Shown here one piece after another: positions 16,121 to 63,739 of a DNA stretch of 64,000 bases. The notes under the pieces were generated by a model, which had not been told where the DNA came from, did no database searches, and worked only from the letters and a program-made list of their open reading frames with translations. Each line of letters begins with the position of its first letter. Positions within the stretch are counted from its first letter, which is position 1. Source of the stretch: Bdellovibrionota bacterium (lineage in GTDB: Bacteria > Bdellovibrionota_C > UBA2361 > OMII01); contig JBBAUR010000003.1 of the NCBI GenBank assembly GCA_040398075.1, positions 4,660-68,659 of the forward strand. Reading direction: 5' to 3'. Position numbers and translations under genes: made by a program.

Positions 16121-16123
16121 GAC

Positions 16124-32222: not shown

Positions 32223-33269
32223 ATGACACTCAAAGACATTGGTGAACGAATGGAAGCCATAAATAAAACGGAGACAAGCCCGTCTAATCAGCCAGTTGCG
32301 CCTGCGACACCGGAAGCTTCTCAAGCACCTGCCGCCGGGAAATCAAGCGAGTTCGACACAACGCTACGGTCACTCGTACGCCCAGATCAGGCAAATAAGG
32401 TCAGCGAGGAGGATCTTTTTTCCGCTCTCGTGCAGGAACGTATTAAAAAACTCAAAGGGGATGAGACCCTGAAGGAGTTTCAGGGCATGCTCCAAACGAG
32501 TCAGAATTCAATGACAAAAGCCGATGGGTTCATCCCCATGGAGGATGCAGCCAAGGCTGCTCTGATTGAACTCCGGGCAGCAGGTAAGCTCACCGAGGAA
32601 GAGGCTGATTCCATATATTCCCAAGCTTTTGCAGGAGCTCAACTCGACGAAAACGAGAACGCTCTCTTCGATTCACGGGGGGGCAAGGGAGACCCAACTA
32701 TCGCGGTGGCGACACTCGAGCAAGCATTACTTTCGAGTCGCGTAACGATAGAGGAGTATGACAAGGGCACCAAGACAGCTCCCAAGCGTAGCCTAGAGGA
32801 GGCTAGCAACGGCAAAGTCGCGACCTCGGGTGCGGTATCAGGAATGACGGGCGATGCTGGCTTTCTCTTCAAACCGGTCTCAGATAGCGACGGTAAGCTC
32901 GCCGTCCTCTTGCCACCTCGACTCACAGGCCTGGCACAAAGTGTTCGACTCTTGAGTCCCTCGGGCGAGGTGCTAGAAACCGGCCGCTACAGCGGTAACG
33001 GAAATGGCGGCCGCGAACACTTCCGTTTCACCAAACCTGGCGCCGGATATCCAGATGGATTGACGGTGGAGGTCACGTTGCAGGGTGGTTCAATCGTTCG
33101 ATACATCATCGAGGAGACATCTCAACGTAACGAGGGAGGAAGCGGCTCATCTGGGGTGAGCTCGGCCGCCTCGGGGTCTGAGAGCAACTTCTCCCCCTCA
33201 GCAGCGCCGAACGGCCCCTTGCGCCGAGGGGGTGGAAGAGGGAAAGAACCTGAGGACCTTTCCCTGTAG
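32223..33269 (+). CDS. Hypothetical protein upstream of motA (possibly flagellum-associated)
   Basis: 348 aa, low complexity and Gly/Ser-rich at the C-terminus. Same strand as motA and 90 bp upstream of it. A G7 run lies inside the CDS. Confidence 0.5.
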   Translation: MTLKDIGERMEAINKTETSPSNQPVAPATPEASQAPAAGKSSEFDTTLRSLVRPDQANKVSEEDLFSALVQERIKKLKGDETLKEFQGMLQTSQNSMTKADGFIPMEDAAKAALIELRAAGKLTEEEADSIYSQAFAGAQLDENENALFDSRGGKGDPTIAVATLEQALLSSRVTIEEYDKGTKTAPKRSLEEASNGKVATSGAVSGMTGDAGFLFKPVSDSDGKLAVLLPPRLTGLAQSVRLLSPSGEVLETGRYSGNGNGGREHFRFTKPGAGYPDGLTVEVTLQGGSIVRYIIEETSQRNEGGSGSSGVSSAASGSESNFSPSAAPNGPLRRGGGRGKEPEDLSL

Positions 33270-33358: not shown

Positions 33359-34219
33359 ATGCTCGTCATCGTCGGTTGTATAGGGGTACTCGCCAGCGTT
33401 CTGATCGGCTTCATAGGGCCGGGTGGTCCCGTCTTGGTTCTCATTCAGCCCTTTGAGTTCCTCGTTATTGCAGGTGGTATCGGATTCACCGTTTTGATTG
33501 CCTCGCCGGCATCAGTGTTAAAGGGACTCCTACCGGGAATAATCGGAGCTATCAAAGGTAGCGGTATCGACAAAGGAACCTACAGCGACCTACTCGGATT
33601 GATGGCGAGTATCTTCGATACGATGCGCCGTGAAGGAGTGCTGGGGATCGAAGGGGATATATCAAATCCCCACGAAAGCGCGCGATTTAAGAGATATCCC
33701 AAGGCATCCCACGATCACCACCTCATGGAGACCTTCACCGGTGCGTTACGTTTATTCGTTGACGGTGTGGTCAATGCCTTCGACCTCGAACGGCTCCTCG
33801 ACACCGAGATCGAAACACACCACGAAGAAGCTCTCCTTCCACCCACTGCCGTAAAGGTCATGGCCGACTCGTTCCCTGCGATGGGTATCGTGGCCGCGGT
33901 GTTGGGAATCATCATCACCATGCAATATCTCGATGGACCACCGTCCGAGATCGGTCATCACGTTGCCGCCGCACTCGTAGGAACGATGTTGGGAATCCTC
34001 CTTTCGTACGGATTCGTCGGACCTCTTGCCACTAAAATGGAACACAATGTGCGGGAGCAGACTGCCATTCTCAAGTGCATTCAGGCCGGTCTCGTATCGT
34101 TCGCTGGTGGTGCGCCACCGCAGGTCGCACTCGAGTTCGCTCGAAAAACAATTCCGAGTTTTTGTCGTCCGACGTCGGAAGAGCTCGAACAGATTATCAA
34201 GGACGCCAAAAAAAGTTAG
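33359..34219 (+). CDS. motA: Flagellar motor stator protein MotA
   Basis: 286 aa, 4 TM helices, ExbB/MotA-family loop. GAGAGG RBS. Followed by motB. Confidence 0.85.
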   Translation: MLVIVGCIGVLASVLIGFIGPGGPVLVLIQPFEFLVIAGGIGFTVLIASPASVLKGLLPGIIGAIKGSGIDKGTYSDLLGLMASIFDTMRREGVLGIEGDISNPHESARFKRYPKASHDHHLMETFTGALRLFVDGVVNAFDLERLLDTEIETHHEEALLPPTAVKVMADSFPAMGIVAAVLGIIITMQYLDGPPSEIGHHVAAALVGTMLGILLSYGFVGPLATKMEHNVREQTAILKCIQAGLVSFAGGAPPQVALEFARKTIPSFCRPTSEELEQIIKDAKKS

Positions 34220-34245
34220 CACGTTGAAGGCAGCTCTCATCCACC

Positions 34246-35508
34246 ATGGCAGATGACAAGCCAATCATAGTTGTCAAAAAGAAAGGGGGACATGGTGGCC
34301 ACCACGGCGGAGCCTGGAAGATCGCGTATGCCGACTTCGTTACGGCGATGATGTGCTTTTTCATGGTAATGTGGCTCGTCAACAGTGCTTCACAAACCGT
34401 CAAAGAGAGCATATCTTCATATTTCCGAAAGCCAGGAATCTTCAATGAAGGGTCCGGCACCCCCCTGTTGCTGGGAGGTGCTGGGATTCTGAGCGATGCC
34501 TTTGTCCCGCCGCGCCCCGAAGATAAGCGAAAAGTCAAAAACCCGACCGAAGACCCTTCACGAAAAATGCACGGCGAAACCGATAGAGATCTCGACAAGC
34601 ACTATATTCAAGAAGGGCGAGAGGAACCTCAAAAACACAAGGGCCCCGATACATTTACAGGTCTCAATTCCGATAAAAAGGAGATTCGTGACAGCAAGCG
34701 GGAAATCAAGGTCAAAGCGATGGCTGATGCGGCCCAAAAGCAGCTACAACAAATGCTCAATAGCTCTCCGAGTACCGCGCGCCTTCTCGGACAGCTCGAC
34801 ATGAAGGTCGAAGCAGATGGACTCAAGATCGAGATCATGGATACGGACAAGGTATCGATGTTCGACAGCGGCAGTGCTCGCATTCGAAAGGAGGCTGAAG
34901 AGGCATTCGGCAAAGTTACTGAAATCATCAAACAGTATCCGAATACTCTCGAAGTGTGGGGTCATACCGATGCAAAGCCTTTCCCGAGTCGTACCGGAGG
35001 CTATACCAACTGGGAGTTGTCAGCTGATCGTGCAAACGCTGCTCGTCGATTGATCGAAATGAAAGGGTATCCGAGCCCTCAAATAGCAAGCGTAATCGGC
35101 AAGGCAGCAACAGAACCAAAGATTGCTTCTGACCCAATTGCTCCCTCTAACCGTCGAATCACCCTCAAAGTTCGCTTTGATGTCAACAAAGAGAAAACAG
35201 AGGCTCAGAAGAAGGACGAATCCATAAAAGCGCTGGAGAACCACCTACTAGGGCTTCAGCCTGCACGAACTCCTCTCCCAGGTGAGCCCACACCGACGCC
35301 GATGCCAACGCCGACGCCTACGCCCACTGCCACACCGACGCCGCAGCCGACGAACGAGTCGAGACGCATTACCGCGCGACAACCCTCGGACCGCATACGA
35401 TTACCTGATGGAACTCCAATAACCACCAACCCAGATTTCATGCCCGAAGACAAAATCTTCAACGACAATCCCGTCATCAGGCCGAGCGAGTTATACTCCG
35501 GAAGATAA
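34246..35508 (+). CDS. motB: Flagellar motor stator protein MotB (OmpA-like C-domain, Pro/Thr-rich tail)
   Basis: N-terminal TM with the plug region 'YADFVTAMMCFFMVMW', an OmpA-like domain 'WGHTDAKPF...WELSADRANAARR', and a C-terminal 'PTPTPMPTPTPTPTATPTPQPT' repeat. Confidence 0.85.
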   Translation: MADDKPIIVVKKKGGHGGHHGGAWKIAYADFVTAMMCFFMVMWLVNSASQTVKESISSYFRKPGIFNEGSGTPLLLGGAGILSDAFVPPRPEDKRKVKNPTEDPSRKMHGETDRDLDKHYIQEGREEPQKHKGPDTFTGLNSDKKEIRDSKREIKVKAMADAAQKQLQQMLNSSPSTARLLGQLDMKVEADGLKIEIMDTDKVSMFDSGSARIRKEAEEAFGKVTEIIKQYPNTLEVWGHTDAKPFPSRTGGYTNWELSADRANAARRLIEMKGYPSPQIASVIGKAATEPKIASDPIAPSNRRITLKVRFDVNKEKTEAQKKDESIKALENHLLGLQPARTPLPGEPTPTPMPTPTPTPTATPTPQPTNESRRITARQPSDRIRLPDGTPITTNPDFMPEDKIFNDNPVIRPSELYSGR

Positions 35509-42001: not shown

Positions 42002-43966
42002 CTAGTCCATCTTCCATGAGACCGCAGCAATTCGCGCCTCGAACCTATCGCCATCTGAGCTCTTCACCAAGATGCAGTTAAACGGAGCATCCTCCTTCCT
42101 GCTTACTCGGTGCCACTGCAATCCTGCCTTGCTTCCTGGCGGCACAATGAGACCATCGAAAGTACTCCTCAATTGAACTACCCCTTTAGGCTCATCACAG
42201 AGAGCGAAGGAAACTAAGATCGGGGCTTTGAAGTCGAGCCTCAGATCTACTCCGCGCGCTACATGCATTTTATCGAACGTCACGAGCACCCCACGCTCCG
42301 GAATAACGACAGGATTGAAGGGTTCGTCCTGCGAACCAGGTGATACCTTCTCAAATGTATTGACCGGAACAACCACAGGATTCTGCTCGTAGGCACGGAG
42401 CAAATGGTCAAATGAACCAGTTGAGAACTGCCACACTGCTACGAGTCTCGATATACTGAATAGGTTACCCCGTACGATCTGCAGATATCTTTTATAGAAC
42501 TCGTTCAGATGCGGGTCTACCATCCTTGGTTGCCCCGCCTTTACAGATTCCAGGTATCCTAATGGAACGTCTCTTAAGAGGTGGCCAGGTCTAAAACTAG
42601 AGCGATTCCTAGCCTTCAGTCGAGAGAGAAAGCCATCAGTAAGTCCATGAGCATCGACGAGTACGACATTGTGGCCTGAACTATATCCAGCAAAACCGGG
42701 AAAATCGTTCCTTTTAACTGCTATTCCTGGTGCACCCCACGTTGAAATGGTGATTGGCGTTAAGGCGCGATCCTGTGTCCAAACTTGAAGAGAGTGCTTA
42801 CGAGACCAAAAACGTCTTTCGTCAGCGATTCCAGTCAACCGTATCTGACTATGCGGTAGTATGTCGCATTGAGAGAAGGGAGGACAATCTCCTATCCTGG
42901 ACAGAAGGACACACGAGAGCGCAATAATAGCGCAGCTTGCCGCAGACAATTGTGGAAGGATACCAAAAGCGAGGATACTCGTAGCAATAGCAAGCTCTCC
43001 GAGAAAGAAGCGCCCCATCATGAAGTCACCGCCTATAAAGATGACATACATCATATGTAGAAGCGCCCCCAGTGCGAGGGCACGAGTTTTACCACCGAGG
43101 CTCGTGAGACCGATAAGGACTCCACTCAAAATAGTGAATGCAGTCACCGGATCATGAGAAACAGTATCAATTCCGTAAATTACTCCCTGCCGAACAACGG
43201 TGGTCAGCGGAATATCGTGATTCAACTTCGAAATAGCTGGACTCGGAATGCTCGTTCCGTAATAAAATGTAGTGAACAAGAGCCACATAATCAGTGGTGA
43301 CACTGCGAGCACCAGATTTTTAATCTGGTGACGAATCTCGGCGCGATGGTCAAATATCAACCATGCACAGAGAGGCATGCAGTACAAAGCTGCGTCGAAT
43401 CGTGTCAGTACCACCATTGATGCCCACATGGCGATCGTCGGCAGCTGTTTTCGAAGCATCACTGCTCGAGCAAATCCTACCAAGGTAAACAACAGAAGCG
43501 GAGTCTCAAGACCGCTCGACTGGAAGTCGACAAATGTTCTGCTCGTGAAAAGGATGCTAGCTGGGATGAACACCAACCAGCCTTTCGGTGACAGCCCTTG
43601 GTAAAACAGGACTATCAATGCGCACCCAAAAAAGACATCCAGGAGAAAAAGAACCAAAAAGGAGTCCGCTGTCAGCAGATGTCCTAGCGCGACCAGGATC
43701 ATCCACAGCGCACTTGAGTAGGACTGTACTCGCTCGTTTATATTGAATCTGAGCCCGTTGCCCTCTGAAAAGTGGAGTGCTGTGCGCAGGTACATAAAGG
43801 CGTCATCAGACACCCAGAAGTTGCGGAGCAAGGCAAAGAAAATCCACGCAAAAAGGGCGTACAAAGCTATGCGGTTGGATATCCCGCTACCGGCACCATG
43901 CGTGGCGAACGGAGCAGGCGAAGGCTCGCCGCGAGGAGCGTCTGGATTTGGACTGCGCGTCAGCAT
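42002..43966 (-). CDS. Large polytopic membrane protein with C-terminal soluble domain (GT-C-like glycosyltransferase candidate)
   Basis: 654 aa. N-terminal motif 'WVSDDAFMYLRTALHFSEGNG' and 10 or more TM helices, then a periplasmic or soluble C-terminal domain. Confidence 0.45.
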   Translation of the reverse strand: MLTRSPNPDAPRGEPSPAPFATHGAGSGISNRIALYALFAWIFFALLRNFWVSDDAFMYLRTALHFSEGNGLRFNINERVQSYSSALWMILVALGHLLTADSFLVLFLLDVFFGCALIVLFYQGLSPKGWLVFIPASILFTSRTFVDFQSSGLETPLLLFTLVGFARAVMLRKQLPTIAMWASMVVLTRFDAALYCMPLCAWLIFDHRAEIRHQIKNLVLAVSPLIMWLLFTTFYYGTSIPSPAISKLNHDIPLTTVVRQGVIYGIDTVSHDPVTAFTILSGVLIGLTSLGGKTRALALGALLHMMYVIFIGGDFMMGRFFLGELAIATSILAFGILPQLSAASCAIIALSCVLLSRIGDCPPFSQCDILPHSQIRLTGIADERRFWSRKHSLQVWTQDRALTPITISTWGAPGIAVKRNDFPGFAGYSSGHNVVLVDAHGLTDGFLSRLKARNRSSFRPGHLLRDVPLGYLESVKAGQPRMVDPHLNEFYKRYLQIVRGNLFSISRLVAVWQFSTGSFDHLLRAYEQNPVVVPVNTFEKVSPGSQDEPFNPVVIPERGVLVTFDKMHVARGVDLRLDFKAPILVSFALCDEPKGVVQLRSTFDGLIVPPGSKAGLQWHRVSRKEDAPFNCILVKSSDGDRFEARIAAVSWKMD

Positions 43967-48295: not shown

Positions 48296-49555
48296 CTATG
48301 CGGACTCAGCATGCTGGTATACTACCAGGGGCTTCTCGCCTTTTACGATCGTATCCTCAGAGACGATCACTTCTTTGATATCAGGCTCAGAGGGGACGTC
48401 GTACATCGCCTCGAGCATCACAGCCTCAAGGATAGCTCTAAGCCCTCGAGCACCGGCTTTTCTTTCGATCGCTTGCTTAGCCACAGCAGAGAGTGCCCCT
48501 TCGGTGAATCTGAGCTGCACATTTTCCATGTCGAAGAGTTTCTTGTACTGCTTGGTCAGGGCATTCTTCGGCTCAACGAGGATCTTAACCAATGCCCCTT
48601 CATCGAGATCGTCGAGCACTGCTATCATGGGGAGTCGCCCGATGAACTCAGGTATGAGGCCAAACTTCAGAAGGTCCTCAGGCTGAACCAGACTCAGGAG
48701 CGATCGCTTCTCATCTGGTTTGGGCAACTTCGATCCCCTCTGATGAGCGCCGAACCCGAGCTTCTTCTCTCCAACCCGCCGGCGGATGATATCCTCCAAG
48801 CCCACAAAGGCCCCGCCACATATGAAGAGGATGTTGCTCGTATCGACTTGCAGAAATTCCTGCTGGGGATGCTTGCGACCTCCTTTGGGTGGTACGCTAG
48901 CAACCGTTCCCTCGAGCATCTTGAGCAACGCCTGCTGTACTCCCTCTCCCGAAACATCTCGGGTTATCGATGGGTTCTCGGCCTTTCTCGAGATCTTGTC
49001 GATCTCGTCAATGTAGACGATACCCCGTTGGGCTTTCTCGACATCATAGTCAGCGTTCTGCAAAAGATTGAGGATGATGTTTTCGACATCCTCCCCGACG
49101 TAGCCAGCCTCAGTGAGCGTCGTCGCATCAGTTATCGTAAACGGAACCTGCAAAATCCGCGCGAGAGTCTGCGCTAGCAACGTCTTTCCGGTACCAGTCG
49201 GTCCGATCAAAAGGATGTTAGATTTGGCGATTTCGACATCACCCGCCGTAGTTTTGGCCTCCAGACGCTTGTAGTGGTTGTGGACGGCTACTGAAAGCAC
49301 TTTCTTCGCCATCTCCTGTCCCACCACGTACTGGTCCAGGTAACTTTTGATATCTCTCGGCTTGGGCACCCGAGATTGGGTAGCCGTTACGGACTCTGTG
49401 TCTACCTCTTCCGATATTATGTCATTGCAAAGGTCGATACACTCATCGCAGATATAGACGGAGGGCCCTGCTATCAGCTTCCTAACCTCGTCTTGCGAGC
49501 GATTACAGAACGAGCACACCAACGAGTGTCGATTCTTGTCACCGGACTTGCTCAC
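48296..49555 (-). CDS. clpX: ClpX (paralog 2, canonical tig-clpP-clpX-lon context)
   Basis: Zn-finger '[11 protein letters not shown]...CDEC', '[11 protein letters not shown]' and '[10 protein letters not shown]'. Confidence 0.95.
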
Positions 49556-53452: not shown

Positions 53453-54016
53453 TCAAGGTTCGAAGCGTTCAGCTAGAAGATCCTCGATACCAGAGACATC
53501 AGTGCCGATATAGGTTACCACTCCCCGAGGATCGATGAGTACTGCCATCGGCACGAGCTCTCCGAAAAACTTCTGGTATGCCTCGTCAAAGATATCGTTC
53601 CCCGAGAAGATGTGAACTATGCTCTCGAGCTGCTGGCTAGAGATGCGACTTTTCAACGTTTCGAAATCTTCATTTCGATCCACGCTCACCGCAAAAAACC
53701 GTACGTTTGTCCGACGACGATAGGCTCGCGCCAAATCCTCGAAATCGGCGATAGCGCTCTTCGAATATCTGCACCAGGTGGCCCAGAACAACACCGCCAC
53801 ATACCGTCCTCGTTCAGCGCTGAGGGTTGTTTCCGACCCGTCGAGCATCATGAGTCTAGCGTCTGGAGCAGGTCGTCCAATCAGACTCGCAGCTTTTTCC
53901 GGAACAGAGGAACATGCTGCAACTTCGAGCAGCAAGCACACAAGCGTGCATCTTAAAAAGGATTGCACTCTGTTCATACTGTGGAACAGTAGAAGGCCGC
54001 GCACAAATGGTCTCAC
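53453..54016 (-). CDS. Thioredoxin-fold lipoprotein (TlpA/ResA-like, CxxS monothiol)
   Basis: 'AVLFWATWCRYSKSA' is a WCxxS motif and the lipobox-like 'LLEVAAC' follows the alternative start MNRVQ at 53977. An ATGA overlap with the kinase-like gene stop supports the 54016 start. Confidence 0.65.
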   Translation of the reverse strand: MRPFVRGLLLFHSMNRVQSFLRCTLVCLLLEVAACSSVPEKAASLIGRPAPDARLMMLDGSETTLSAERGRYVAVLFWATWCRYSKSAIADFEDLARAYRRRTNVRFFAVSVDRNEDFETLKSRISSQQLESIVHIFSGNDIFDEAYQKFFGELVPMAVLIDPRGVVTYIGTDVSGIEDLLAERFEP

Positions 54017-56400
54017 CGATTGACTCGCTCTCTTATAGTACTGATATGTTTTTCGTATGCTGCTCGCACTACCGGATCAGTTTCTACTGCGTACGAATCT
54101 GCTAATATTTTGAGTATGCCTACGTCGTTTGCGGAGCTCAAAGCTTCGACTACAACTGCGCGGACCAGCGGATCCGACTGTCCGACGAGCTCCAGCAGCT
54201 GTGTGCGATCAATCAGGGAATTGTATCTTTTTATGACCTCCCGCACGGCCCGAGATGAAGGCCCCTTCAAAACAACTCGAACAAGGTCTCTGCTTTTAGG
54301 TAAGCCATTTAATCCGTCGAACGCACCACTGAAAACACTATCAGGTAGCACATTTTCCAGGGCTAGAGCCGCTACTATACGCCCTACGAGCGCTCTATCA
54401 GCGTAGTACGTTGAACGCACATAATCATATAGACCTGAGATACCGGGGGCCAGAAGCGGCTTGGCTGCCAGCGCATCGAAGGCCCGTGCCCCGAGTTCGG
54501 GATCTTTGCTTATGACGACGAGCGCCCACAAAACCTTCTCGGCATCCGAATCATACCAGCCGGCAAAACTCACTACCTCCGCCTTGGCGGCTCTTCCCAT
54601 CGCACATGTAACGAGGCTTACCTGCACGCGAGCCGGAATACTTGCTTTTCTAGTTAGAATTTCCAGGAAGAGCTTCGCCTCTGTAGGTACAATCTCGCGA
54701 GCCAGCGCCCGCTCCGAGATCCTCTTGACTCCCGGGAATTGCCGCTTCGCTAACTCCGCAAGTAACCAAAGAACATCCCTATCGTGGAGCGATGAGGGCT
54801 CTACCAATATATCTTCGATGTAGAGCGTCGATACCTCGGGAATCACAAGCATCAGGGCACCTACCGAGCGATCACTCACAGCGGAGGGATCCTCCCGAAG
54901 TGAAGCCGCCGCGCCTGAAACAAATACAGGCCGAAAAGCATCCAGTTGCTTCAGATCAAGCGCGAGGGCCGCTGCAAATCCGATGCTTGCTCTCGGATCT
55001 TCCGCTCTGAGCGCCTCCAACAGCTCGATTCGCGTGACAGTGGGCAGCGCTGGGTCGAGTAGGCGCAGAAACGTGCCCGACTTAGTACCGCGTTGTGGCG
55101 CTGACGACTCACTTTTACCCCATGCCCGAACATAATCGGACGCACGGACTAGTCCACTTCGACGAGCGCGCGTGAGGAGACTATCCCATACCTTGAGCGC
55201 GGTCTGATCGGAGTCCGATTCTTTGAACATGCGAACGAGGATGTCGTGAGCAAGAGGATCTCCCGACATTACCAGTTGATCGATGTATTCATTCCTTGCA
55301 CCCTGTGTCTCCTCTACGAGCAAGGCTTCGCTAACGTCGCCGGGGCGCATCTCAAGAGCTCCCAAATTATCCTTGCTGGGGAAAACCGATGTGCCTTCGA
55401 AGCCCATCCACAGACCAACGCCTATCAGAAAGATCACGAGAGCTACCTTTAGTAGCCTTACCATACTCGGCCCCGAGGGTTCGACGACAGGCTGCTTCTC
55501 CTTGGCGCTACCCGGTAGTGCATGGAGCGAAATCGCCACAGCTGAGGCAGCTGTGCGTGCTGGCGGCGAACTGACTTGCGTCTCGACTTTTGCCGGCAAG
55601 CTGTCTCGAACCACGGCATTCTCTTTCCATTGGGTTATCGCCTGCAGCAGGTCAGCAGCAGTCTGTGGCCTCTCACCTGGAGAGGGACTGAGGGCCTTCT
55701 CGAGCACATCATCAATCCATTCAGGTGCCGACCCGTTGAGCGCATGTGGCTTATGCGTCAATTTTTCGGACTCATTGAATCGAGGATACTCACCAGTGAA
55801 GAGTCGATACCCTATGACGCCAAGCGCAAAGATATCGGTTGCACTAGTGCACTCGTTCGCTTTACGTTGCTCAGGTGCAACGCACTTCATCCAGTCGCCT
55901 GCATCATCGGTAGCTGTATGATTGGTTTGCTCGAATATTCCCCACCCAGCGAATATCTTCATGGCACCGAAGCGATCTAGAAGAAACGACTGCAGGCAGA
56001 GGTCGCCACAAGCGATGTTATGAGCATGTAGTTTTGCGACAAGGCGAACGACTGCCACATAACGTCGCTCTACTTCGACAAGCTCTGGTGACTCTTCGCC
56101 CAAGACAGCCCCATCGAGTAAAGGTAAAACCACAAAAGCTGTGCCAGCACCATCAACTCCGAATGAAGAGATCTCGGTGATTTGAGAGAGTTGTCCAGCT
56201 CGAGAGGCAAAAACAGGGACTTGATCCGGCTTAAGTGGAGCCTTGAATATAACGAGGCCTACACTTTGTCTTCGAAACTTGTCGAGAGCCTTAAATACAT
56301 CGACGATTCGGGTAGAGGCTATCTTGTTTTCGACTACGAAGTAGTCCGAAACAATCCCGGATAATCTAGACATCACTGGAGAGGTAGAAGCCATAATCAA
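54013..56400 (-). CDS. Ser/Thr protein kinase-fold protein with degenerate catalytic motifs (likely pseudokinase) and C-terminal HEAT/ARM-like repeats
   Basis: Kinase fold recognisable: 'VGLVIFKAP' (VAIK Lys), 'WMKCVAPE' (APE) and 'DIFALGVIGYRLFTG'. The catalytic loop reads 'HNIACGDLCLQSFLL' instead of HRDLKPxN, 'AGW' replaces DFG, and there is no Gly-rich loop. The C-terminal roughly 450 aa are helical repeats. Confidence 0.7.
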   Translation of the reverse strand: MIMASTSPVMSRLSGIVSDYFVVENKIASTRIVDVFKALDKFRRQSVGLVIFKAPLKPDQVPVFASRAGQLSQITEISSFGVDGAGTAFVVLPLLDGAVLGEESPELVEVERRYVAVVRLVAKLHAHNIACGDLCLQSFLLDRFGAMKIFAGWGIFEQTNHTATDDAGDWMKCVAPEQRKANECTSATDIFALGVIGYRLFTGEYPRFNESEKLTHKPHALNGSAPEWIDDVLEKALSPSPGERPQTAADLLQAITQWKENAVVRDSLPAKVETQVSSPPARTAASAVAISLHALPGSAKEKQPVVEPSGPSMVRLLKVALVIFLIGVGLWMGFEGTSVFPSKDNLGALEMRPGDVSEALLVEETQGARNEYIDQLVMSGDPLAHDILVRMFKESDSDQTALKVWDSLLTRARRSGLVRASDYVRAWGKSESSAPQRGTKSGTFLRLLDPALPTVTRIELLEALRAEDPRASIGFAAALALDLKQLDAFRPVFVSGAAASLREDPSAVSDRSVGALMLVIPEVSTLYIEDILVEPSSLHDRDVLWLLAELAKRQFPGVKRISERALAREIVPTEAKLFLEILTRKASIPARVQVSLVTCAMGRAAKAEVVSFAGWYDSDAEKVLWALVVISKDPELGARAFDALAAKPLLAPGISGLYDYVRSTYYADRALVGRIVAALALENVLPDSVFSGAFDGLNGLPKSRDLVRVVLKGPSSRAVREVIKRYNSLIDRTQLLELVGQSDPLVRAVVVEALSSANDVGILKILADSYAVETDPVVRAAYEKHISTIRERVNR

Positions 56401-56422: not shown

Positions 56423-58618
56423 TTATCGTGAAGCCAACTCCCAAGTTCCAATCTGCTCCACCGGTATCACAGGATCGAGCTCCTCATAGCTTACGACAAA
56501 TAGTGGGCGAGCCAATCCCCGTGCCAATGATAGCACCTTATCTCGAATTTCACTGCTGCACAGTATCGCAACCGGCACCGTGCCAAATTCGAACACCGAC
56601 TTCAGAACAGATTGAAGTCCTAAAGACAGTGCTTCAAAGGTACTACCCTCGATAGCAAGCGGGAGTCCAGATTCCGAAATTTCGGCCTGCTGCAGAGCCT
56701 GTTCAACGTCAGCAGATAGACCGAGAACCCGCACGCCTCTGGAGGCTCCTAGATAGCGGCGAAGGATCTGACGCTTTCGATGCGTACGGATAAACTGCAC
56801 TGCTCGTGTAACATCGATGTTACTGTCTTGTCCCAAGGAAATCCCGAAACTCGCGCAGTAGGAGGCGACGCTTTCGAGAATCGCCCGGAAGTCTCTGATA
56901 CTTACGCCTTGTCGAACTAGCTCGTGAAGTATCTCTGTAAGAGCTGGTACAGATACGAACTCCTTGCCGAACCCCTCTGCAATCAATCCAGGATGCTTCT
57001 TTTCAACCTGACGCAGCAGAGAGTGAACATCCGTCACCGAAAGAAACTCCTCGGGATGTCGAAGACAAAAACTGCCTACGCGAAGTCCGACATATTCAAA
57101 GAAATCAAAGCTCCGAATCGAGGCCAATTCCAACATCTTGCGCACACCCGGGGTATTACGACACCAGAACACCCTGTTACCGGATATGGGATGGTCCTCC
57201 TCCAGTAAGACATGGAGACCGAGTACTGTAGCCTGAAAACTCGCAATCTCTACGAGTAGCGCGTCGGTCAGAACCGGCCCAGCAACCATCTCCACCCCTG
57301 AACTCGTCACGCGATACGATGAAGAGGGCAGAAGCTCATCCGAGACTACGTGAATATCGGGTAATCTTACCCCCACGTCGGCAAAGAAATCGGCCTGGAA
57401 GGATCGCCACCACGACATCCATTTACCAGGATTCGAACGGTAAGAGCGGTAGAGAACTCCGCTATCGAGCATGAGGGAAAGGCCTGAGTCCTCGAGCTCT
57501 CCTTCTCTCAAGTTAACTGACGACAACGATGGCAAGCCGTCCAAACGACCATACATCCCAGAAGCTAACTCCATGCTCGAAGAATGTCCGCGTCGTCTGT
57601 GAGCTACTATTCCAATCGCCCACGCCAACAGTGCTACTACTACGAAGGGGAAGGCGGGCACTCCTGGTAGCAGCGCAAAAATCATTAGGACGGCCCCGGT
57701 GATGAGCAAAGTAACTGGCTGAGAAAAAAGTTGTTCCCGTAGATCGGAGCTTAACGTCGAAACGTCCGCAGAGGATACACGAGTGACTATGATACCGGCG
57801 CAGATTGAGGTCAGCAGGCCGGGTATCTGCGTTACTAGCCCATCCCCCACGGTGAGCACCGTGTACGACTGCACTGCATCGACCAGAGGCATTCCTCCAG
57901 ACAATCCCATGTACACACCACCTATGATGTTGGTGAGGATGATAAAGAACCCTGCCACTGCATCACCCTGAACAAACTTCATTGCGCCGTCCATGGAGCC
58001 GTACAACTGTGAGTCTCGCCTCAACTCGTCTCTTTTCCGACGAGCTTCATCAGCCGAGATCACCCCCGAACGAGCATCGTTGTCGATCGCAGTCTGTTTC
58101 CCGGGCAGAGAGTCCAATGCAAATCGAGCTGCTACCTCCGATACGCGACTTGCTCCCTTCGATATGACGATAAAATTCACAATCGTCACAATCGTAAAAA
58201 TGATGATTCCCACCACCACTTCGCCACGAATGAGGAAGGTTCCAAAAGATTCAATTACTCGTCCTGCGTCTCCCTGGCTCAAGATCAGTCGAGATGAAGC
58301 CACATTGAGACCCAATCGGAACAGGGTGCTCAGAAGAAGAATGGTGGGAAAGGTGTACAACGCCGCAGAGTTCGGAAGATACAAACCCACCAGGAGCAGC
58401 AAGATCGAGAAGGATATGTTGATGACTAGCAGTACGTCTAGGAGCATCGTCGGAAGGGGTACGATGAGCATCGCCGTGATAGCGACGACCAGAGCAACCA
58501 AAACGACATCGGCGTACCGAAGTCTTCCGTTCATTACGATAGCCTCAACCTTTATCCCCATCTGAACTCGGCCACAGCGATAGCTCCTCACCTCGACGCG
58601 GCGACCATGTAACGCCAC
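56423..58618 (-). CDS. flhA: FHIPEP-family export gate protein (FlhA/SctV homolog), full length
   Basis: TM domain with 'FRLGLNVASSRLIL', 'FALDSLPGKQTAIDNDARSGVI' and 'YGSMDGAMKFVQGDAVAG', plus the cytoplasmic domain hallmark 'VSIRDFRAILESVASY'. 731 aa. Lies 6 bp after tadC, 23 bp before the kinase-like gene. Confidence 0.85.
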   Translation of the reverse strand: MALHGRRVEVRSYRCGRVQMGIKVEAIVMNGRLRYADVVLVALVVAITAMLIVPLPTMLLDVLLVINISFSILLLLVGLYLPNSAALYTFPTILLLSTLFRLGLNVASSRLILSQGDAGRVIESFGTFLIRGEVVVGIIIFTIVTIVNFIVISKGASRVSEVAARFALDSLPGKQTAIDNDARSGVISADEARRKRDELRRDSQLYGSMDGAMKFVQGDAVAGFFIILTNIIGGVYMGLSGGMPLVDAVQSYTVLTVGDGLVTQIPGLLTSICAGIIVTRVSSADVSTLSSDLREQLFSQPVTLLITGAVLMIFALLPGVPAFPFVVVALLAWAIGIVAHRRRGHSSSMELASGMYGRLDGLPSLSSVNLREGELEDSGLSLMLDSGVLYRSYRSNPGKWMSWWRSFQADFFADVGVRLPDIHVVSDELLPSSSYRVTSSGVEMVAGPVLTDALLVEIASFQATVLGLHVLLEEDHPISGNRVFWCRNTPGVRKMLELASIRSFDFFEYVGLRVGSFCLRHPEEFLSVTDVHSLLRQVEKKHPGLIAEGFGKEFVSVPALTEILHELVRQGVSIRDFRAILESVASYCASFGISLGQDSNIDVTRAVQFIRTHRKRQILRRYLGASRGVRVLGLSADVEQALQQAEISESGLPLAIEGSTFEALSLGLQSVLKSVFEFGTVPVAILCSSEIRDKVLSLARGLARPLFVVSYEELDPVIPVEQIGTWELASR

Positions 58619-58624
58619 AGTAAA

Positions 58625-59545
58625 TCACAACGCTGTGAGAATCTGTAGAAGGAATCCGATCAGTAAAATAACGAGGTAGCCGAAAAATACCAAAGCAACC
58701 GGCGCCGTCGCTTCGAGCTCCAATTTCTTTATTTTAGCCTCTATCTTCGTTTCTCGTTGCGCCGAAACAGCATCCGCGAGCTCTTGAAGTTGCTTCGATA
58801 CCTCACCACCGAACTTCGCTACCTGCGCAAGCGCCATAAAAGCATGTTTGAGTTCAACCTGTCCGGAGAGCTTACCCACCTCTGTCAGGGCCTCTTCGAG
58901 ACCTACGCCTGACTTGATATGATACTGAGCATATCGAACTAATTCCGTAACGGCGTTATGACTATCCCTCTCATCTGCCATCTGAACCACACGCGACAAA
59001 CACGGACCTATGTCGAGCGAGCTACTGACTCCGATTGAAATTTGCTCGATGACGAGCGGAAGATAGAAGAGGATGTCTTCGGCTCGTTGTTTCATGCGCC
59101 TCTCGAGAATTCTGAATGGGATGTAGAACCCTGCGAGCAGGCCGATGAGTGCAGCAAGCATCCCGAATTGCCACCCTGATGCGGACCAACCAAAGCCAGC
59201 AAGAACGACAGAGCCGACCGCCGGCAAGAGGATCCGCAGCCTTTGGAAGTCCTTCCGTTGTCTCTCGGTGAAAAGCCCCGCTCTGAACATCTTCTCCTGC
59301 AGCGTAGGCTCAGAGCTTTTTTTGAGTGACTTACGCGTCGCTGCTTTGACCTTCTCGAGCTGCTCTCCAGTCTCGTCATTCTCGATCGACTCACGTAGGT
59401 CAGCATTCGGAGAAACTACAACTCGTGAGCCCATCAAAGAGCGATAGTCGACTTTGGGCGTCGTAAAGAGCATCCAGACCAGCAAGCCAAGGGAGAGCGC
59501 GCCACCAATTCCGGCCACAAGCGGTATTAATGAGGACAGTTCCAT
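58625..59545 (-). CDS. tadC: Tad/Flp pilus assembly inner-membrane platform protein TadC-like (T2SSF domain)
   Basis: 306 aa with N-terminal and central TM helices and a T2SSF-type cytoplasmic domain. Follows tadB with a 4-bp gap. Confidence 0.75.
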   Translation of the reverse strand: MELSSLIPLVAGIGGALSLGLLVWMLFTTPKVDYRSLMGSRVVVSPNADLRESIENDETGEQLEKVKAATRKSLKKSSEPTLQEKMFRAGLFTERQRKDFQRLRILLPAVGSVVLAGFGWSASGWQFGMLAALIGLLAGFYIPFRILERRMKQRAEDILFYLPLVIEQISIGVSSSLDIGPCLSRVVQMADERDSHNAVTELVRYAQYHIKSGVGLEEALTEVGKLSGQVELKHAFMALAQVAKFGGEVSKQLQELADAVSAQRETKIEAKIKKLELEATAPVALVFFGYLVILLIGFLLQILTAL

Positions 59546-59549
59546 CGTA

Positions 59550-60548
59550 TTACACCTTGATCTTGGTCACTTGCCGTACCCAGAACAATCCGAGAATGAT
59601 TCCAATCAAGCCAGCTTGGCAAACAGGACGCCCTATCGGGTGTGTCCACGGGACAGTTACGCACGCAGGCCAGCTGATATACAAGTAACCTTCGAGAGCG
59701 GCTAAAATGGCGAGAATGAACCATATGGAACCTCGCTGGAGCCCGACTGCTGCCACCGCAGACTTTCGGAAGTACTGTCGCTTGCGAACCTGCCTCGAAA
59801 GGCGGTCAAGTGTGTCCGAGAGATTTCCGCCGACACGCCGACTCAGGATGAGCGCTTGTACGAACAACTCTATCTCCGGATGGTAAATATCTTCGCCGAA
59901 TGACCCCACGGAGCGCTCTTCTGGGACACCGAGTTTCAAGCGTTCGAGCATAAGCTGAACCTCGGACCTAACCAGCGATGTTTCCTCGAGCCCCTCTGCT
60001 GCTGACTGTAGGCCCTGAATTGGGTTGAGTCCGGTCTTCAAAAGACCCGCAAGTGACAGCAAAAATTGCGGGTAATCAGCATCGAACTGGTTGAATCGAC
60101 GATCCATCTTCATGGTCAGGAGCCAGTTCATGAAGAGGGGTCCAGTCAATAGCGACATAAACTGCAACACGACATCAAAGTACTGTCGTGTGATCAGAAA
60201 TGCGCCGAGGCTTAGAAGAATTTGGGCTAGGCTGAATGCGAAGGGGGGGATGTGTGTGAGCTGCGAGTACTTCAACCTTTTGCGCAAAGTGAGAACGGTA
60301 TCAGCAACTTTTTCAACGGCTTCGTTCTCTTCGAGCGCGTTGACGAATCGCTTCCCCGCAGCCAAATTCGCCGTCTCCGTGCTGACATCCGCGGAGGCTC
60401 GCTGAGCCGAAGAGATCGAGCGCATCTGTTGCCTCCATGAGCTATTTGCTAAGAAGGTACCAACAATTTGGCCGGAGAAAAGAAACGCGACTGCCGCCCC
60501 GACCACCAAGACCGCTCCGATAATCAGAACCAAAGAGAGTGTACTCAT
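59550..60548 (-). CDS. tadB: Tad/Flp pilus assembly platform protein TadB-like (T2SSF domain)
   Basis: 332 aa with T2SSF-family topology. Directly downstream of cpaF. A C7 run lies in the CDS. Confidence 0.75.
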   Translation of the reverse strand: MSTLSLVLIIGAVLVVGAAVAFLFSGQIVGTFLANSSWRQQMRSISSAQRASADVSTETANLAAGKRFVNALEENEAVEKVADTVLTLRKRLKYSQLTHIPPFAFSLAQILLSLGAFLITRQYFDVVLQFMSLLTGPLFMNWLLTMKMDRRFNQFDADYPQFLLSLAGLLKTGLNPIQGLQSAAEGLEETSLVRSEVQLMLERLKLGVPEERSVGSFGEDIYHPEIELFVQALILSRRVGGNLSDTLDRLSRQVRKRQYFRKSAVAAVGLQRGSIWFILAILAALEGYLYISWPACVTVPWTHPIGRPVCQAGLIGIILGLFWVRQVTKIKV

Positions 60549-60559
60549 ACCCTTTCCTG

Positions 60560-62077
60560 TCAGCCCTTGGTCGAATTTGACACGCCAGCCTGGGCGGGCC
60601 CACTGATTGAGATCTCTTGTGGTGAATCCCCGAGATGAATTCCTGATGCTTTCAGCTGTTCATCGAAGTTACTCGACCACGAATCGACCCTCCATACCGG
60701 TCGATTTCCCTGCTTGATCTGAGTGAACATGGGACGTACCTGTATGACTCCCTCAACGAAATGACCAACCTCTATAATCTCTGCTACTCGTGGCTTACCG
60801 GTTGCTTTCTCGCGCACTAACCAAACTACCGAATCGACCGCAAGGGCAATTTGTTGACGAATGATGTCAATTGCTACCGACTTCTGCGCACGTCCTAGGA
60901 GGCTCTCCAAGCGGACCAAGGTCTCACGCGCGTTTCGAGCATGTACGGTCGACATCCCTACATGGCCGGTCTGCGCACTTTCGAGAAACGCCTCGGCTGC
61001 AAACGGCGTGCGCATCTCTCCCAACAGTACACGGGTTGGGGTCATACGAAGAGTGGTTTTGATGTGCTCCTGCAGGGTCACCTCACCGACTCCCTCAGCA
61101 TTCGGAGGTCTCGATACCAACGACCGAAAGTAGGGGTGGGTAAAGTTAAGCTCAGGGGTATCCTCTACGGCTACAATTGATTCGTCAGGTCCGAACTGCG
61201 TGGCGAGACACTTAATTAATGTCGTTTTTCCTGTTCCAGTCTCGCCTGCCACCATCATCGTCGCAAGTCCGCTACGTACCAGGCACGCGAGGTAATTCAC
61301 TATCAGCGGTGGTGCCACCTGATACGTGATGAGATTTTCCAAGCTGACCTCTGACATACGCGGCACTCGGATACAGAGAAGAGGACCACGCTGACCGCAT
61401 ACACTCTCGTGAACTGCACACAATCGCGTACCGTTTGGAAAGGAGGCATCAACTGTATGCTGCTGTGTCGTGAGTGACTTCCCTAACCGCAGAAGCATTC
61501 GGTCGATGAAGGTCACGTAAGATTGATGATTGGGCCAGTGTAGCCCCGTTGTTTCGCTTACTTTTCCTCTTTGGAGAACAACAGTCTTGTAGTCGTAGAC
61601 GTGAATATCGGTCACCTCACGATTGTCGATGAGCGGCTGAAGCACACCCCATCCCATGAGGTCCTTTTGGAGATGGATGATGACGTTGGCCCGCTCTATG
61701 TCGTCGAGTGCATCCCCTCGTTTTTTGAGAACACGATCGACTGCAGCAGCGATTGCAGTTTCTGCCATCGCGGAGTTGTTCATCTGCTGCTGCATATTGT
61801 AATCGCTACCGAGCTCTCGTCGTGCATCGCGCATGACCGCTGAAGCAAGTGCGGACATCTCGGAGCCACGACTCGCCGAAGCGCCAGAACCCCCAGAGCC
61901 GAATGTATTCGTAGAGGTCGCAGTCGAGGATGATTGCGGAGTCACTGAGCCAGGCAGCGCAGTGCTGGATTGGCCTAACGCTGGCCGCGTTATATCAAGT
62001 TGCGTACGATGGTGAGTCGTGCGCGTCGAGAACATCCCAAGGAGTCCATCTTTTTCATCCTTGCTTGAACCCGCCAT
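60560..62077 (-). CDS. cpaF: Tad/Flp pilus assembly ATPase CpaF/TadA (with S/T-rich N-terminal extension)
   Basis: Walker A 'VAGETGTGKTTLIKCL', 'AVEDTPEL', His box 'TVHARNARET' and Asp box. The N-terminal 90 aa are low-complexity Ser/Thr/Gly-rich. Confidence 0.9.
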   Translation of the reverse strand: MAGSSKDEKDGLLGMFSTRTTHHRTQLDITRPALGQSSTALPGSVTPQSSSTATSTNTFGSGGSGASASRGSEMSALASAVMRDARRELGSDYNMQQQMNNSAMAETAIAAAVDRVLKKRGDALDDIERANVIIHLQKDLMGWGVLQPLIDNREVTDIHVYDYKTVVLQRGKVSETTGLHWPNHQSYVTFIDRMLLRLGKSLTTQQHTVDASFPNGTRLCAVHESVCGQRGPLLCIRVPRMSEVSLENLITYQVAPPLIVNYLACLVRSGLATMMVAGETGTGKTTLIKCLATQFGPDESIVAVEDTPELNFTHPYFRSLVSRPPNAEGVGEVTLQEHIKTTLRMTPTRVLLGEMRTPFAAEAFLESAQTGHVGMSTVHARNARETLVRLESLLGRAQKSVAIDIIRQQIALAVDSVVWLVREKATGKPRVAEIIEVGHFVEGVIQVRPMFTQIKQGNRPVWRVDSWSSNFDEQLKASGIHLGDSPQEISISGPAQAGVSNSTKG

Positions 62078-62304: not shown

Positions 62305-63183
62305 CTACCTATTCGCCGCGTCCTCAGGCACGAGCTTGCCATTCATTATTAAGAACACCTTCCCTTCGACAACTACCCGCCCTTCTGAAGTTATAGGGGC
62401 TGGACCCTTTGGGCCCTCTACGGACAGGAGACTGTCGATTAACACCGTTGTATTAGCCTCGCTCTCGATAGTATCCTCGTCACCTCGCAGCACCAGGCTC
62501 AATACTCCCGAACTTGATGCCAACTGCAACTTTGCCGCCTCATCAATTGAAACCATGATTGTTACTGTCGATGCTGGAGCGCTCTTCTCTCCCGAAGCTT
62601 GACTAGTGGTGCTCCGACCAGCCGACAGAACCTTTGCATTCTGGATGATAACCGATAGCGCTGGTTGCGCATTTACGGCTGATGCGAGCACAACATCGAC
62701 CTTGGCACCCGGCCGTGCCCACCCTTCTACACTGGTGGTGTTGTCCACTGATAATGCAACCGCTCTGTAGCCATCCGGGATATTTGCTTGAATCTGATTG
62801 ACCGGCTGTTTTGAGGTAACGTACTCAGCAACTATAGGCTGCGCCGCGGGCATGTAGGAAGCTGCATACACGCCACGGATCTCCTCGAATGTCTTCAGAG
62901 TGTTCGGTGCAAGAGAATTTGCGAGTCTGGACTCCTTTCGGAACATCGAAGGGTCGAGGGCAGTGCCTACCTCTATCTTCTCGATCGGTACTAACACGTC
63001 TACCAACTCGGAAGCTATAGAGGGCTTGGGCGCTTCTACCGAAGGCTGTGTTGGATTGATTCCGAGAACCGCATAAACCGACAAGGTCAGGATACACAGC
63101 ACCACTATCGCACCCAGCACAAGCGGCGCCGGTGCCGAGCGAGACCTAGAAAGCTGCTTGGATCCTGAAAGGCCTCTGACCAT
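62305..63183 (-). CDS. cpaB: Flp pilus assembly protein CpaB/RcpC-like (SAF domain)
   Basis: N-terminal TM anchor followed by periplasmic SAF/beta-rich domains typical of CpaB. Confidence 0.7.
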   Translation of the reverse strand: MVRGLSGSKQLSRSRSAPAPLVLGAIVVLCILTLSVYAVLGINPTQPSVEAPKPSIASELVDVLVPIEKIEVGTALDPSMFRKESRLANSLAPNTLKTFEEIRGVYAASYMPAAQPIVAEYVTSKQPVNQIQANIPDGYRAVALSVDNTTSVEGWARPGAKVDVVLASAVNAQPALSVIIQNAKVLSAGRSTTSQASGEKSAPASTVTIMVSIDEAAKLQLASSSGVLSLVLRGDEDTIESEANTTVLIDSLLSVEGPKGPAPITSEGRVVVEGKVFLIMNGKLVPEDAANR

Positions 63184-63280: not shown

Positions 63281-63457
63281 CTAGCCGCCGCCCAAGCGGT
63301 TACTGACAGCAGAGAACTGCTGAGAGACGGTGTTACCGAGAGCCCTAACCGCCACTATGGCTACAATCGCTATCAACGCCACTAAAAGGGCGTACTCGAC
63401 GAGCGACGCACCCTTCTCTTCCAGCGACTCAACTTGTTTTTTACCGGTAGCTAGCAT
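63281..63457 (-). CDS. flp: Flp-family pilin (second tandem copy; below ORF-track length cut-off)
   Basis: Hand-translated as 'MLATGKKQVESLEEKGASLVEYALLVALIAIVAIVAVRALGNTVSQQFSAVSNRLGGG'. It carries the Flp 'GASLVEYAL' motif and is near-identical to the flp at 63554..63739. Confidence 0.7.
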   Translation of the reverse strand: MLATGKKQVESLEEKGASLVEYALLVALIAIVAIVAVRALGNTVSQQFSAVSNRLGGG

Positions 63458-63553: not shown

Positions 63554-63739
63554 TTAGCCGCCGCCCAGCACGTTGCTGAGTGCAGAGAATTGCTGCGAAA
63601 CAGTGTTACCCAGCAATCTGATAGCAGCTATAGCCACTACTGCGATGAGGGCAACCAGAAGGGCATACTCTACGAGCGAAGCACCTTTCTCGGGCGACTC
63701 TTGCTCGTTGTCGAGTTTAACATCTATTTCCTCGTTCAT
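63554..63739 (-). CDS. flp: Flp-family pilin (first copy)
   Basis: '...EKGASLVEYALLVALIAVVAIAAIRLLGNTVSQQF' has the Flp G/XXXXEY processing motif. RBS AAGGAG-N6-ATG. Confidence 0.8.
   Translation of the reverse strand: MNEEIDVKLDNEQESPEKGASLVEYALLVALIAVVAIAAIRLLGNTVSQQFSALSNVLGGG

Follow-up and report, generated by a model that had tools for sequence, protein, structure and literature searches.

A predicted bitopic pseudokinase encoded beside an SctV/FlhA-like protein in a Tad-type pilus operon of a Bdellovibrionota bacterium

Introduction

What does a protein with the fold of a Hanks-type kinase do in a pilus operon when the residues that such kinases use for catalysis are missing? The question is raised by a gene, here called PsK (for pseudokinase), on a stretch of 64,000 nucleotides from a Bdellovibrionota bacterium (contig JBBAUR010000003.1, positions 4,660 to 68,659; the window), where it stands among genes for Tad-type pilus components and an FHIPEP protein. 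A preliminary description, made from the letters of the window, had read its product as a kinase-fold protein with degenerate catalytic motifs followed by HEAT-like repeats, and had suggested a scaffold or sensor role. Here we examine the fold and motifs of PsK, the family to which it belongs, its membrane topology and its gene neighbourhood, and weigh the functions that these features suggest.

Results

The kinase-like domain of PsK

PsK lies on the minus strand within an enclosing open reading frame (ORF) at 54013–56400, and the ATG at 56394 is its likely start, with homologues beginning MADTSQ..SRLSG at the equivalent Met. The 793-amino-acid (aa) product consists of a Hanks-type kinase fold, a transmembrane helix and a HEAT-like α-solenoid of 430 aa, laid out as follows:

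54013–56394, minus strand: PsK gene, 793 aa, ATG at 56394, stop codon at 54013–54015 (ORF list, translation, start context)
55609–56355, minus strand: Hanks-type kinase-like domain, aa ~14–262, predicted cytoplasmic (Pfam Pkinase, PknB/Stk1 alignments, Foldseek, AlphaFold (AF2) model)
55987–56010, minus strand: catalytic-loop remnant CGDLCLQS, aa 129–136, replacing HRDxKxxN (alignments to PknB-type kinases and the operon kinase, family census)
55939–55950, minus strand: DFG remnant A-G-W-G, aa 149–152 (alignments; Asp-Phe deleted in every family member)
55399–55461, minus strand: single transmembrane helix, aa 312–332 (AF2 helix 312–330, hydropathy scan)
54019–55305, minus strand: HEAT-like α-solenoid, aa 364–792, predicted periplasmic

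The Hanks-type fold recognized in the preliminary description was borne out by the Pfam profile Pkinase (PF00069; aa 113–257, E 4.9e-8, 33.1 bits, just above the cut-off of 31.7), by phmmer against PDB sequences, in which aa 14–230 align to PknB/Stk1-type kinases (E 5e-8), and by Foldseek with the AlphaFold model, which returned PknB first (E 2e-7, TM(target) 0.5–0.6). Profile and structure thus agree on membership of the fold, with only the C-lobe modelled confidently: the mean predicted local distance difference test score (pLDDT) is 73, and the N-lobe is poor (27–70). NCBIfam profiles for PknB-type and defence-system kinases gave partial matches, far under their cut-offs.

Four of the five key residues for ATP/Mg2+ catalysis are missing from this fold: the β3 Lys, the αC Glu, the catalytic-loop Asn and the DFG Asp. 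The β3 Lys of PknB (K40) aligns to Val48 of PsK, and its αC Glu (E59) to Arg65, a loss that adds to those noted before. The Gly-rich loop is gone as well, as the preliminary description held, with IASTRIV (I-A-S-T-R-I-V) in place of GxGxxG. The DFG motif does read AGW, within A-G-W-G. For the catalytic loop the earlier reading (CGDLCLQSF, taken as a complete loss) was half right, since Lys is replaced by Cys and Asn by Ser while the catalytic Asp, D131, is retained. The alignment of the operon's own kinase, IVHRDLKPENILL...VKIADFGIAR, with PsK, IACGDLCLQSFLL...MKIFAGWGIFE, displays these differences directly. It had been asked whether intact HRD and DFG equivalents were overlooked through misalignment; this was so for the HRD Asp, whereas DFG and the HRD Lys and Asn are truly lost.

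The Lys proposed earlier as the VAIK-like residue, K51 (in VIFK), was rejected as the catalytic Lys: it aligns to PknB R43, the position is K, Q or R among close relatives, and no compensating Lys is conserved nearby. Structural residues of the C-lobe are retained, including APEQ (aa 173–176) and the αF region DIFALGVIGYRLFTGEYP (aa 187–204), both of which had been seen before, the latter quoted with one Arg dropped. PsK has neither the Gly loop, nor the β3 Lys–αC Glu pair, nor a complete HRDxKxxN, nor the DFG Asp, all features expected of a competent Hanks kinase. A pseudokinase is defined as a kinase fold without at least one of VAIK-Lys, HRD-Asp and DFG-Asp (10.1101/2025.01.12.632604); here two of the three are lost family-wide. 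We infer from these sequences that the kinase-like domain of PsK transfers no phosphate.

The PsK family

A profile search of 1.84 billion cluster representatives gave 474 matches at E ≤ 1e-30 and at least 150 full-length PsK relatives of ~800 aa each, representatives of 50%-identity clusters. For the census, 143 such relatives were aligned with PknB and five ordinary kinases; the PknB sequence served only as a ruler. The 143 relatives have a median identity to PsK of 25%, fall into 46 groups at roughly 32% identity, and all keep a full-length ORF of ~800 aa.

The losses seen in PsK recur throughout this set, and the residues that replace the canonical ones recur with them. At the second and third Gly of the Gly loop the consensus is x-T-R (T in 109/143, R in 96/143). 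The β3 Lys position is Trp in 123 of the 143 and canonical Lys in none, the clade of PsK itself having Val, and the αC Glu position is Arg in 128. The HRD site has become [C/L]-G-D, with G in 132/143 and the Asp kept in 134/143 (94%); the catalytic-loop Lys position is Cys (67/143) or Ser (45/143) and the Asn position Ser (127/143), giving a family consensus of [C/L]GDx[C/S]xxS. The DFG Asp-Phe pair is deleted in all 143. Retained, by contrast, are the P and E of APE (139 and 131 of 143), the αF Asp (143/143) and the αH–I Arg (136/143).

Recurrence of the same substitutions across 143 diverse relatives with intact ORFs upholds the earlier argument that the degeneracy is not noise. Because the replacement residues are themselves conserved and no member has the canonical Lys, we read the group, from its sequences, as an old and selected pseudokinase family to which PsK belongs, rather than as descendants of a damaged gene. 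Two further candidate features failed the census. CGDxC is not a conserved metal or redox motif, with both Cys present in only about half of the family and LGDxS in the rest, and there is no support for a phospho-acceptor Thr conserved throughout the family in the activation loop, the equivalent of PknB T171 being Thr in only 60/143.

The only source name recovered for family members was 'hypothetical protein'. Among the matches listed from a scan of a genome collection, most are ordinary kinases, and those at loci L007 and L008 are true family members; scans of metagenome contigs by pattern gave pattern matches only and no true PsK relatives.

Membrane topology and the C-terminal solenoid

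In the AF2 model, a disordered linker and a hydrophobic helix join the kinase-like domain of PsK to its solenoid. This helix, aa 312–332, had no place in the preliminary description, and it is a property of the family: a hydropathy scan found exactly one hydrophobic segment in 133/143 relatives. In the 15 residues flanking the segment the mean number of K plus R is 3.4 before it and 1.7 after it. The single helix, this positive-inside bias and the absence of a signal peptide together predict a kinase-like domain in the cytoplasm and a C-terminal domain in the periplasm.

The C-terminal domain had been described as roughly 450 aa of HEAT-like helical repeats, and our analysis agrees, giving an α-solenoid of stacked helical hairpins over aa 364–792. 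Candidate surface residues conserved in the family are SxDP (377–380), RRxGL (410–415), LDxxLP (446–451) and ALALD (476–480). PsK itself scores 20.2–24.4 bits against the HEAT/PBS-lyase profile PF13646, under the cut-off of 27.7; the profile matched 9/9 relatives, with a best E of 4.5e-7.

The operon around PsK

PsK lies in a minus-strand row that runs Flp, Flp, CpaB, CpaF, TadB, TadC, FHIPEP, PsK and a TlpA-like gene, which confirms the earlier placement of the gene inside a pilus/FHIPEP operon. From cpaF on, intergenic gaps are at most 28 nucleotides (nt), and the PsK stop and the TlpA-like start overlap by 4 nt. A promoter and terminator scan of the PsK gene region found nothing beyond shuffled expectation. 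The genes of the row are listed below; L091, named in the list, is a public contig identical to the window that reaches past window position 64000.

53453–54016, minus strand: monothiol TlpA/ResA-like thioredoxin-fold lipoprotein (Pfam and NCBIfam matches, lipobox)
56423–58618, minus strand: SctV/FlhA-like FHIPEP protein, full length (Pfam FHIPEP, E 5.8e-171)
58625–59545, minus strand: TadC-like platform protein (T2SSF, conserved synteny)
59550–60548, minus strand: TadB-like platform protein (T2SSF, synteny)
60560–62077, minus strand: CpaF/TadA-like ATPase (T2SSE and TadA-family matches, translation)
62305–63183, minus strand: CpaB/RcpC (RcpC; TIGR03177, 125 bits against a cut-off of 71)
63281–63457, minus strand: Flp pilin 1 (G-A-S-L-V-E-Y motif in the ORF; Flp_Fap call in L091)
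63554–63739, minus strand: Flp pilin 2 (ORF; L091)

The FHIPEP protein has a membrane domain, a linker and a cytoplasmic domain, and keeps the FvxGDAxAG loop. It scores under the NCBIfam cut-offs for both SctV (558 against 692) and FlhA (506 against 772), and its best PDB match is SctV (7alw, 391 bits). No other gene for a type III export gate was found in the scanned ORFs of the window or in any of the loci compared below. The presence of an FHIPEP gene embedded in a Tad operon may be more remarkable than PsK itself.

The active site of the TlpA-like lipoprotein reads W-C-R-Y-S: Ser replaces the second Cys of CxxC, giving CxxS. Its lipobox and the single Cys and Ser of the FW-x-x-W-C-x-x-S site are invariant in 6/6 homologues. 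It is a degenerate, monothiol member of a redox family, in an operon without an obvious Cys-containing client. A redox link between this protein and Cys residues of the PsK solenoid was considered and rejected, the solenoid having 0–2 Cys, none conserved.

The N-terminus of CpaF carries an extension of ~100 aa that is low-complexity and rich in Ser, Thr and Gly. An FHA domain at this position, as in KilF, was rejected on the grounds of that low complexity and of the absence of any FHA match. The extension is a plausible phosphorylation target of the operon kinase, which is encoded further upstream.

That kinase belongs to the head of the operon, which lies beyond the window and is visible in L091. 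Upstream of the Flp genes and on the tad strand, this contig encodes, in order, a PP2C phosphatase, an FHA protein, a Hanks kinase and TadZ:

L091 4234–5205, tad strand: PP2C phosphatase
L091 5224–6261, tad strand: FHA protein, 345 aa (FHA, 22 bits against a cut-off of 20.7)
L091 6302–7780, tad strand: Hanks kinase, 492 aa (185 bits; GSGSMG, VAVK, HRDLKPEN, DFG and APE all intact)

A SpoIIE-type phosphatase is encoded further upstream (L091 1029–2180). The operon kinase ends in a transmembrane helix followed by about six residues, which leave no room for a sensor domain. It shares 28% identity with PsK over the C-lobe (E 3e-12), and this comparison places in one operon a catalytic kinase without a sensor and a paralogue that bears a sensor and lacks catalysis. 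Together, the kinase, PP2C and FHA genes resemble a control module of the PpkA-PppA-Fha1 type.

Downstream, beyond the row, come an S9 peptidase gene on the opposite strand and then tig-clpP-clpX-lon, which marks the DNA as chromosomal. The window holds two ClpX paralogues, at 28510–29787 and 48296–49555 (both minus strand, both with a zinc finger and AAA_2); one is that of the tig-clpP-clpX-lon row and the other stands alone.

Gene order across the family

Fourteen independent loci were chosen to span the PsK family, including the most distant member listed, and were scored by tblastn with the proteins of the window organism. In 13/14 loci, down to ~24% identity, the gene immediately upstream of PsK encodes an FHIPEP protein, a count that includes fragments at contig ends confirmed by BLASTP or by the tblastn census (L093), and tadB-tadC precede the FHIPEP gene wherever the contig extends that far. 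The TlpA-like gene adjoins PsK in 10/14 loci. In two distant loci its usual place, directly after PsK, is taken by a gene for a two-FHA protein resembling the cytoplasmic part of YscD (L003 12701–13891 and L090 10632–12713).

The operon kinase is also found upstream of TadZ in L001, L005, L006, L007 and L008. It is not visible at several other loci: the L087 cluster begins at cpaB, with unrelated genes upstream, and the L094 cluster begins at tadB. It is FHIPEP and TadBC, then, rather than the kinase, that are the invariant partners of PsK. PsK is also the fastest-evolving gene of the block: its identity between the window and L001 is 64%, as against 87% for FHIPEP, 92% for TadC, 93% for CpaF and 95% for TadZ. 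One carrier of the family is a complete Bdellovibrionota metagenome-assembled genome (CP129486.1).

Other genes of the window

Several further genes bear on the organism rather than on PsK. Two adjacent PilT/PilU-like T2SSE ATPase genes (14981–17251, minus strand; 379 and 375 aa) make it probable that a retractile type IVa pilus is also present. A MotA/MotB stator pair (33359–35508, plus strand) suggests a flagellated organism, in which a genuine flagellar FlhA is to be expected elsewhere. A DNA/RNA non-specific endonuclease (Endonuclease_NS; 22911–23825, plus strand) fits a Bdellovibrio-like, prey-degrading lifestyle. Five long ORFs (348–654 aa) matched no Pfam family at E ≤ 1e-4:

23969–25711, minus strand: long ORF without a Pfam family
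42002–43966, minus strand: long ORF without a Pfam family
1882–3249, minus strand: long ORF without a Pfam family
3310–4491, minus strand: long ORF without a Pfam family
32223–33269, plus strand: long ORF without a Pfam family

Discussion

What, then, might a membrane protein of this kind contribute to the machine encoded around it? On balance we lean towards a reading in which PsK is a pseudokinase that crosses the inner membrane once, belongs as a dedicated subunit to a Tad-type machine containing an SctV/FlhA-like protein, and acts there as a non-catalytic sensor or scaffold. Such a role would suit a protein that is bitopic and whose gene stays tightly linked to those for FHIPEP and Tad components.

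We picture the sensor as follows. The periplasmic solenoid would bind a partner on its side of the membrane, either the co-translated TlpA-like lipoprotein, CpaB or an envelope cue, and PsK would relay the state of the solenoid across the inner membrane. On the cytoplasmic side, the kinase-like domain would attach to the cytoplasmic ring of the FHIPEP protein or the TadB/C platform, or control it allosterically, and, where they are present, would also contact the sensor-less kinase and its FHA and PP2C partners. PsK could thereby gate the assembly or the activity of the machine, in the manner of a receptor pseudokinase that has an active kinase as its partner, and of the hub EssB/YukC of the type VIIb secretion system (T7SSb). 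We infer all of these partnerships.

Several points weigh against this proposal. The N-lobe of PsK is modelled with low confidence (pLDDT 27–70), and the periplasmic siting of the solenoid is a prediction only. The HRD Asp is kept in 94% of the family and a Thr-Arg pair is conserved at the Gly loop, features that point to non-canonical catalysis or ligand binding as minor rivals. The scatter of the activation-loop Thr gives no support to a universal role as phospho-substrate. Among the loci, L089 has no adjacent FHIPEP gene, though it remains Tad-linked through TadE/TadE/TadG-like pseudopilin genes downstream of PsK, and the active kinase is not visible in several.

The poorly conserved Thr and the loci without a visible kinase are why we keep, as the main rival, a purely structural and phosphorylation-independent hub: PsK would dimerize and join the FHIPEP ring, TadB/C and the periplasmic parts, and the kinase, FHA and PP2C genes of some operons would provide a distinct layer of regulation that bypasses it. 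We regard this as possible, at a rather low probability. The invariance of its FHIPEP and TadB/C neighbours (13/14 loci) speaks for such a hub, no kinase module was seen in L087 or L094, and the interaction of YukC with FHA is phosphorylation-independent (PMC9600267). Set against it are the suggestive complementarity between a sensor-less active kinase and a sensor-rich paralogue devoid of catalysis, the FHA proteins encoded directly downstream of PsK in two distant loci, and the divergence of PsK between the window and L001 (64% identity, core parts 87–95%), since such fast change is commoner in sensing or adaptor components than in a rigid core subunit.

Kinase-fold proteins that do other chemistry, or the usual chemistry by other means, include the non-canonical kinases WNK and CASK, SelO (AMPylation) and SidJ (glutamylation). 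PsK is unlikely to be an atypical enzyme of this sort, with relocated catalytic residues or another reaction. The HRD Asp is kept in 134/143 relatives, and the conserved replacements in the pocket (Thr28-Arg29, Trp at β3, Arg65, Ser136) speak for a selected function over decay, but both metal ligands are gone, with the DFG Asp deleted and the Asn turned to Ser, as are the β3 Lys, the αC Glu and the Gly-rich loop, and no compensating Lys is conserved.

It is quite unlikely, too, that PsK is a cytoplasmic receptor for a small ligand, its Arg- and Trp-rich pocket binding a phosphopeptide or a second messenger such as c-di-GMP that would control the pilus machine. The conserved Arg residues at the Gly loop and αC and the Trp at β3 would suit such a pocket, a gene of the CHASE2-guanylate-cyclase type stands beside L087, and PilZ and FHA proteins have been noted near Bdellovibrio tad genes (10.64898/2026.07.08.737194). 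The idea is conjecture throughout: PsK showed no known motif for c-di-GMP binding, its own clade has Val rather than Trp at β3, and the N-lobe model is too poor to judge the pocket.

That PsK is a decaying gene, or a sequencing or assembly artefact of a once-active kinase, is hardly credible, for although degenerate motifs alone would allow it, it is already contradicted by an identical PsK protein on independent contigs (P0001/P0164), by intact ORFs of ~800 aa in at least 150 diverged clusters, by the conservation of the replacement residues, by the lack of any frameshift or stop codon seen in relatives and by the 4-nt overlap of the PsK stop with the start of the next gene.

For the sensor or scaffold that we favour, known systems offer partial models. 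EssB/YukC would be the closest functional analogue. The YukC pseudokinase is a bitopic interaction hub that is unable to bind ATP but does bind the T7SSb ATPase at its FHA region (PMC9600267). PsK resembles it in having an N-terminal cytoplasmic kinase-like domain without P-loop, VAIK, catalytic and Mg-binding motifs, a single transmembrane helix and a C-terminal extracytoplasmic domain (a topology that is predicted for PsK), and in being encoded in the operon of an envelope-spanning machine with links to FHA-domain partners. The two differ in that no sequence relation is detectable (no YukC family in Pfam matched PsK at E ≤ 10), PsK has about twice the length, its ectodomain being a HEAT-like solenoid of 430 aa instead of a small helical one, and its host is a diderm whose machine is Tad/FHIPEP rather than T7SSb. 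The preliminary remark that pseudokinases coupled to secretion or pilus machines are rarely described was fair, EssB/YukC being the clear precedent that we found (PMC9600267).

The receptor kinases PknB, PknA and Stk1 are the best sequence and structure matches of PsK. They share with it the order of kinase domain, disordered juxtamembrane linker, single transmembrane helix and extracytoplasmic sensor domain; in PsK, however, all nucleotide- and metal-binding signatures are lost, and the ectodomain is an α-solenoid rather than PASTA repeats or a β-propeller.

In Pseudomonas, PpkA-PppA-Fha1 is the threonine-phosphorylation pathway that triggers H1 type VI secretion. It parallels the operon seen in L091, where a machine is likewise encoded with a Hanks kinase, a PP2C phosphatase and an FHA protein. 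There, the kinase itself carries the periplasmic domain and no pseudokinase takes part, whereas in L091 the ectodomain is found on a pseudokinase distinct from the active kinase, which has none, and the machine in question is a Tad pilus that includes an SctV-like protein. The pathway is also referred to in a study of the Myxococcus Kil system, whose Tad-like clusters are rich in FHA proteins (PMC8460266).

The membrane-tethered pseudokinase domain of MviN (MurJ) is a phospho-dependent docking site for FhaA under an active PknB-type kinase. It is, like PsK, a membrane-tethered bacterial pseudokinase domain; unlike PsK, it is joined to a polytopic flippase, its activation loop is truncated and its HRD Asp is missing, and it serves cell-wall synthesis in Actinobacteria, not a pilus. 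The Mycobacterium tuberculosis domain is classed as ActPs3 in the bSTK Atlas, which recognizes seven bacterial pseudokinase families: CP1, DYD, ActPs1-3, DLHK and GLW (10.1101/2025.01.12.632604). According to its results text, all ActPs1, ActPs2 and GLW members (98% for ActPs3) lack the VAIK-Lys and DFG-Asp, and 97–100% also lack the HRD-Asp; its statements on DLHK are internally inconsistent (10.1101/2025.01.12.632604). The PsK family, without Lys and DFG-Asp yet with the HRD-Asp kept in 94%, fits none of these families by this criterion, compared by description only.

Predatory bacteria supply a further parallel. The Tad-like Kil pilus of Myxococcus recruits, and works with, a type III secretion system devoid of a needle, T3SS* (PMC12075869). 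As there, we find a Tad-type pilus, parts derived from type III secretion, FHA-rich clusters and a predatory lineage. In Myxococcus, by contrast, the T3SS* forms a full cluster of its own, and no Hanks pseudokinase has been reported; here the tad operon itself contains just one SctV-like gene, with PsK as its fixed neighbour. In Bdellovibrio bacteriovorus, TPR, FHA, PilZ and histidine-kinase genes lie near the tad genes, and the text of the preprint that describes them contains no FlhA or SctV term and no Hanks kinase (10.64898/2026.07.08.737194). Our literature search found no paper that links FHIPEP, FlhA, SctV or a Hanks pseudokinase to Tad loci, and no name or paper for the PsK family.

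A bolder and quite tentative idea, which we rate as less likely than not, is that the genes for PsK, the SctV-like FHIPEP protein and the TlpA-like monothiol lipoprotein might form a conserved three-gene add-on that turns the Tad pilus into an undescribed hybrid machine. In it, a type III gate protein would operate in the absence of SctRSTU, inserted into the TadB/TadC platform, with PsK as the transmembrane coupling or regulatory subunit under Thr-phosphorylation control. FHIPEP would then serve, for example, as a ring coupled to the proton-motive force or as a substrate-docking ring, and the whole could be a device for contact-dependent predation or effector delivery in Bdellovibrio-like bacteria. 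By analogy, such a hybrid would be the fused genetic counterpart of the Myxococcus Kil pilus and its needleless T3SS*.

A membrane pseudokinase within an envelope machine is a kind of protein with precedent. The PsK family itself seems not to have been described before, nor its combination of domains, its conserved substitute pocket or, above all, its constant partnership with a single SctV-like protein inside Tad operons. Few pseudokinases are known from bacteria, most of them uncharacterized, and the one well-studied case in secretion, EssB/YukC, proved to be an assembly hub. The pairing of a sensor-bearing pseudokinase with a sensor-less kinase would be a natural bacterial instance of a design known chiefly from receptor signalling in eukaryotes. 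PsK may also point to an undescribed hybrid of Tad and type III secretion systems, with an FHIPEP protein acting outside the flagellum or injectisome. For Bdellovibrio-like bacteria, it would offer a handle on how Tad-type machines are switched on, a question left open by the work on Kil and on the Bdellovibrio Tad system.

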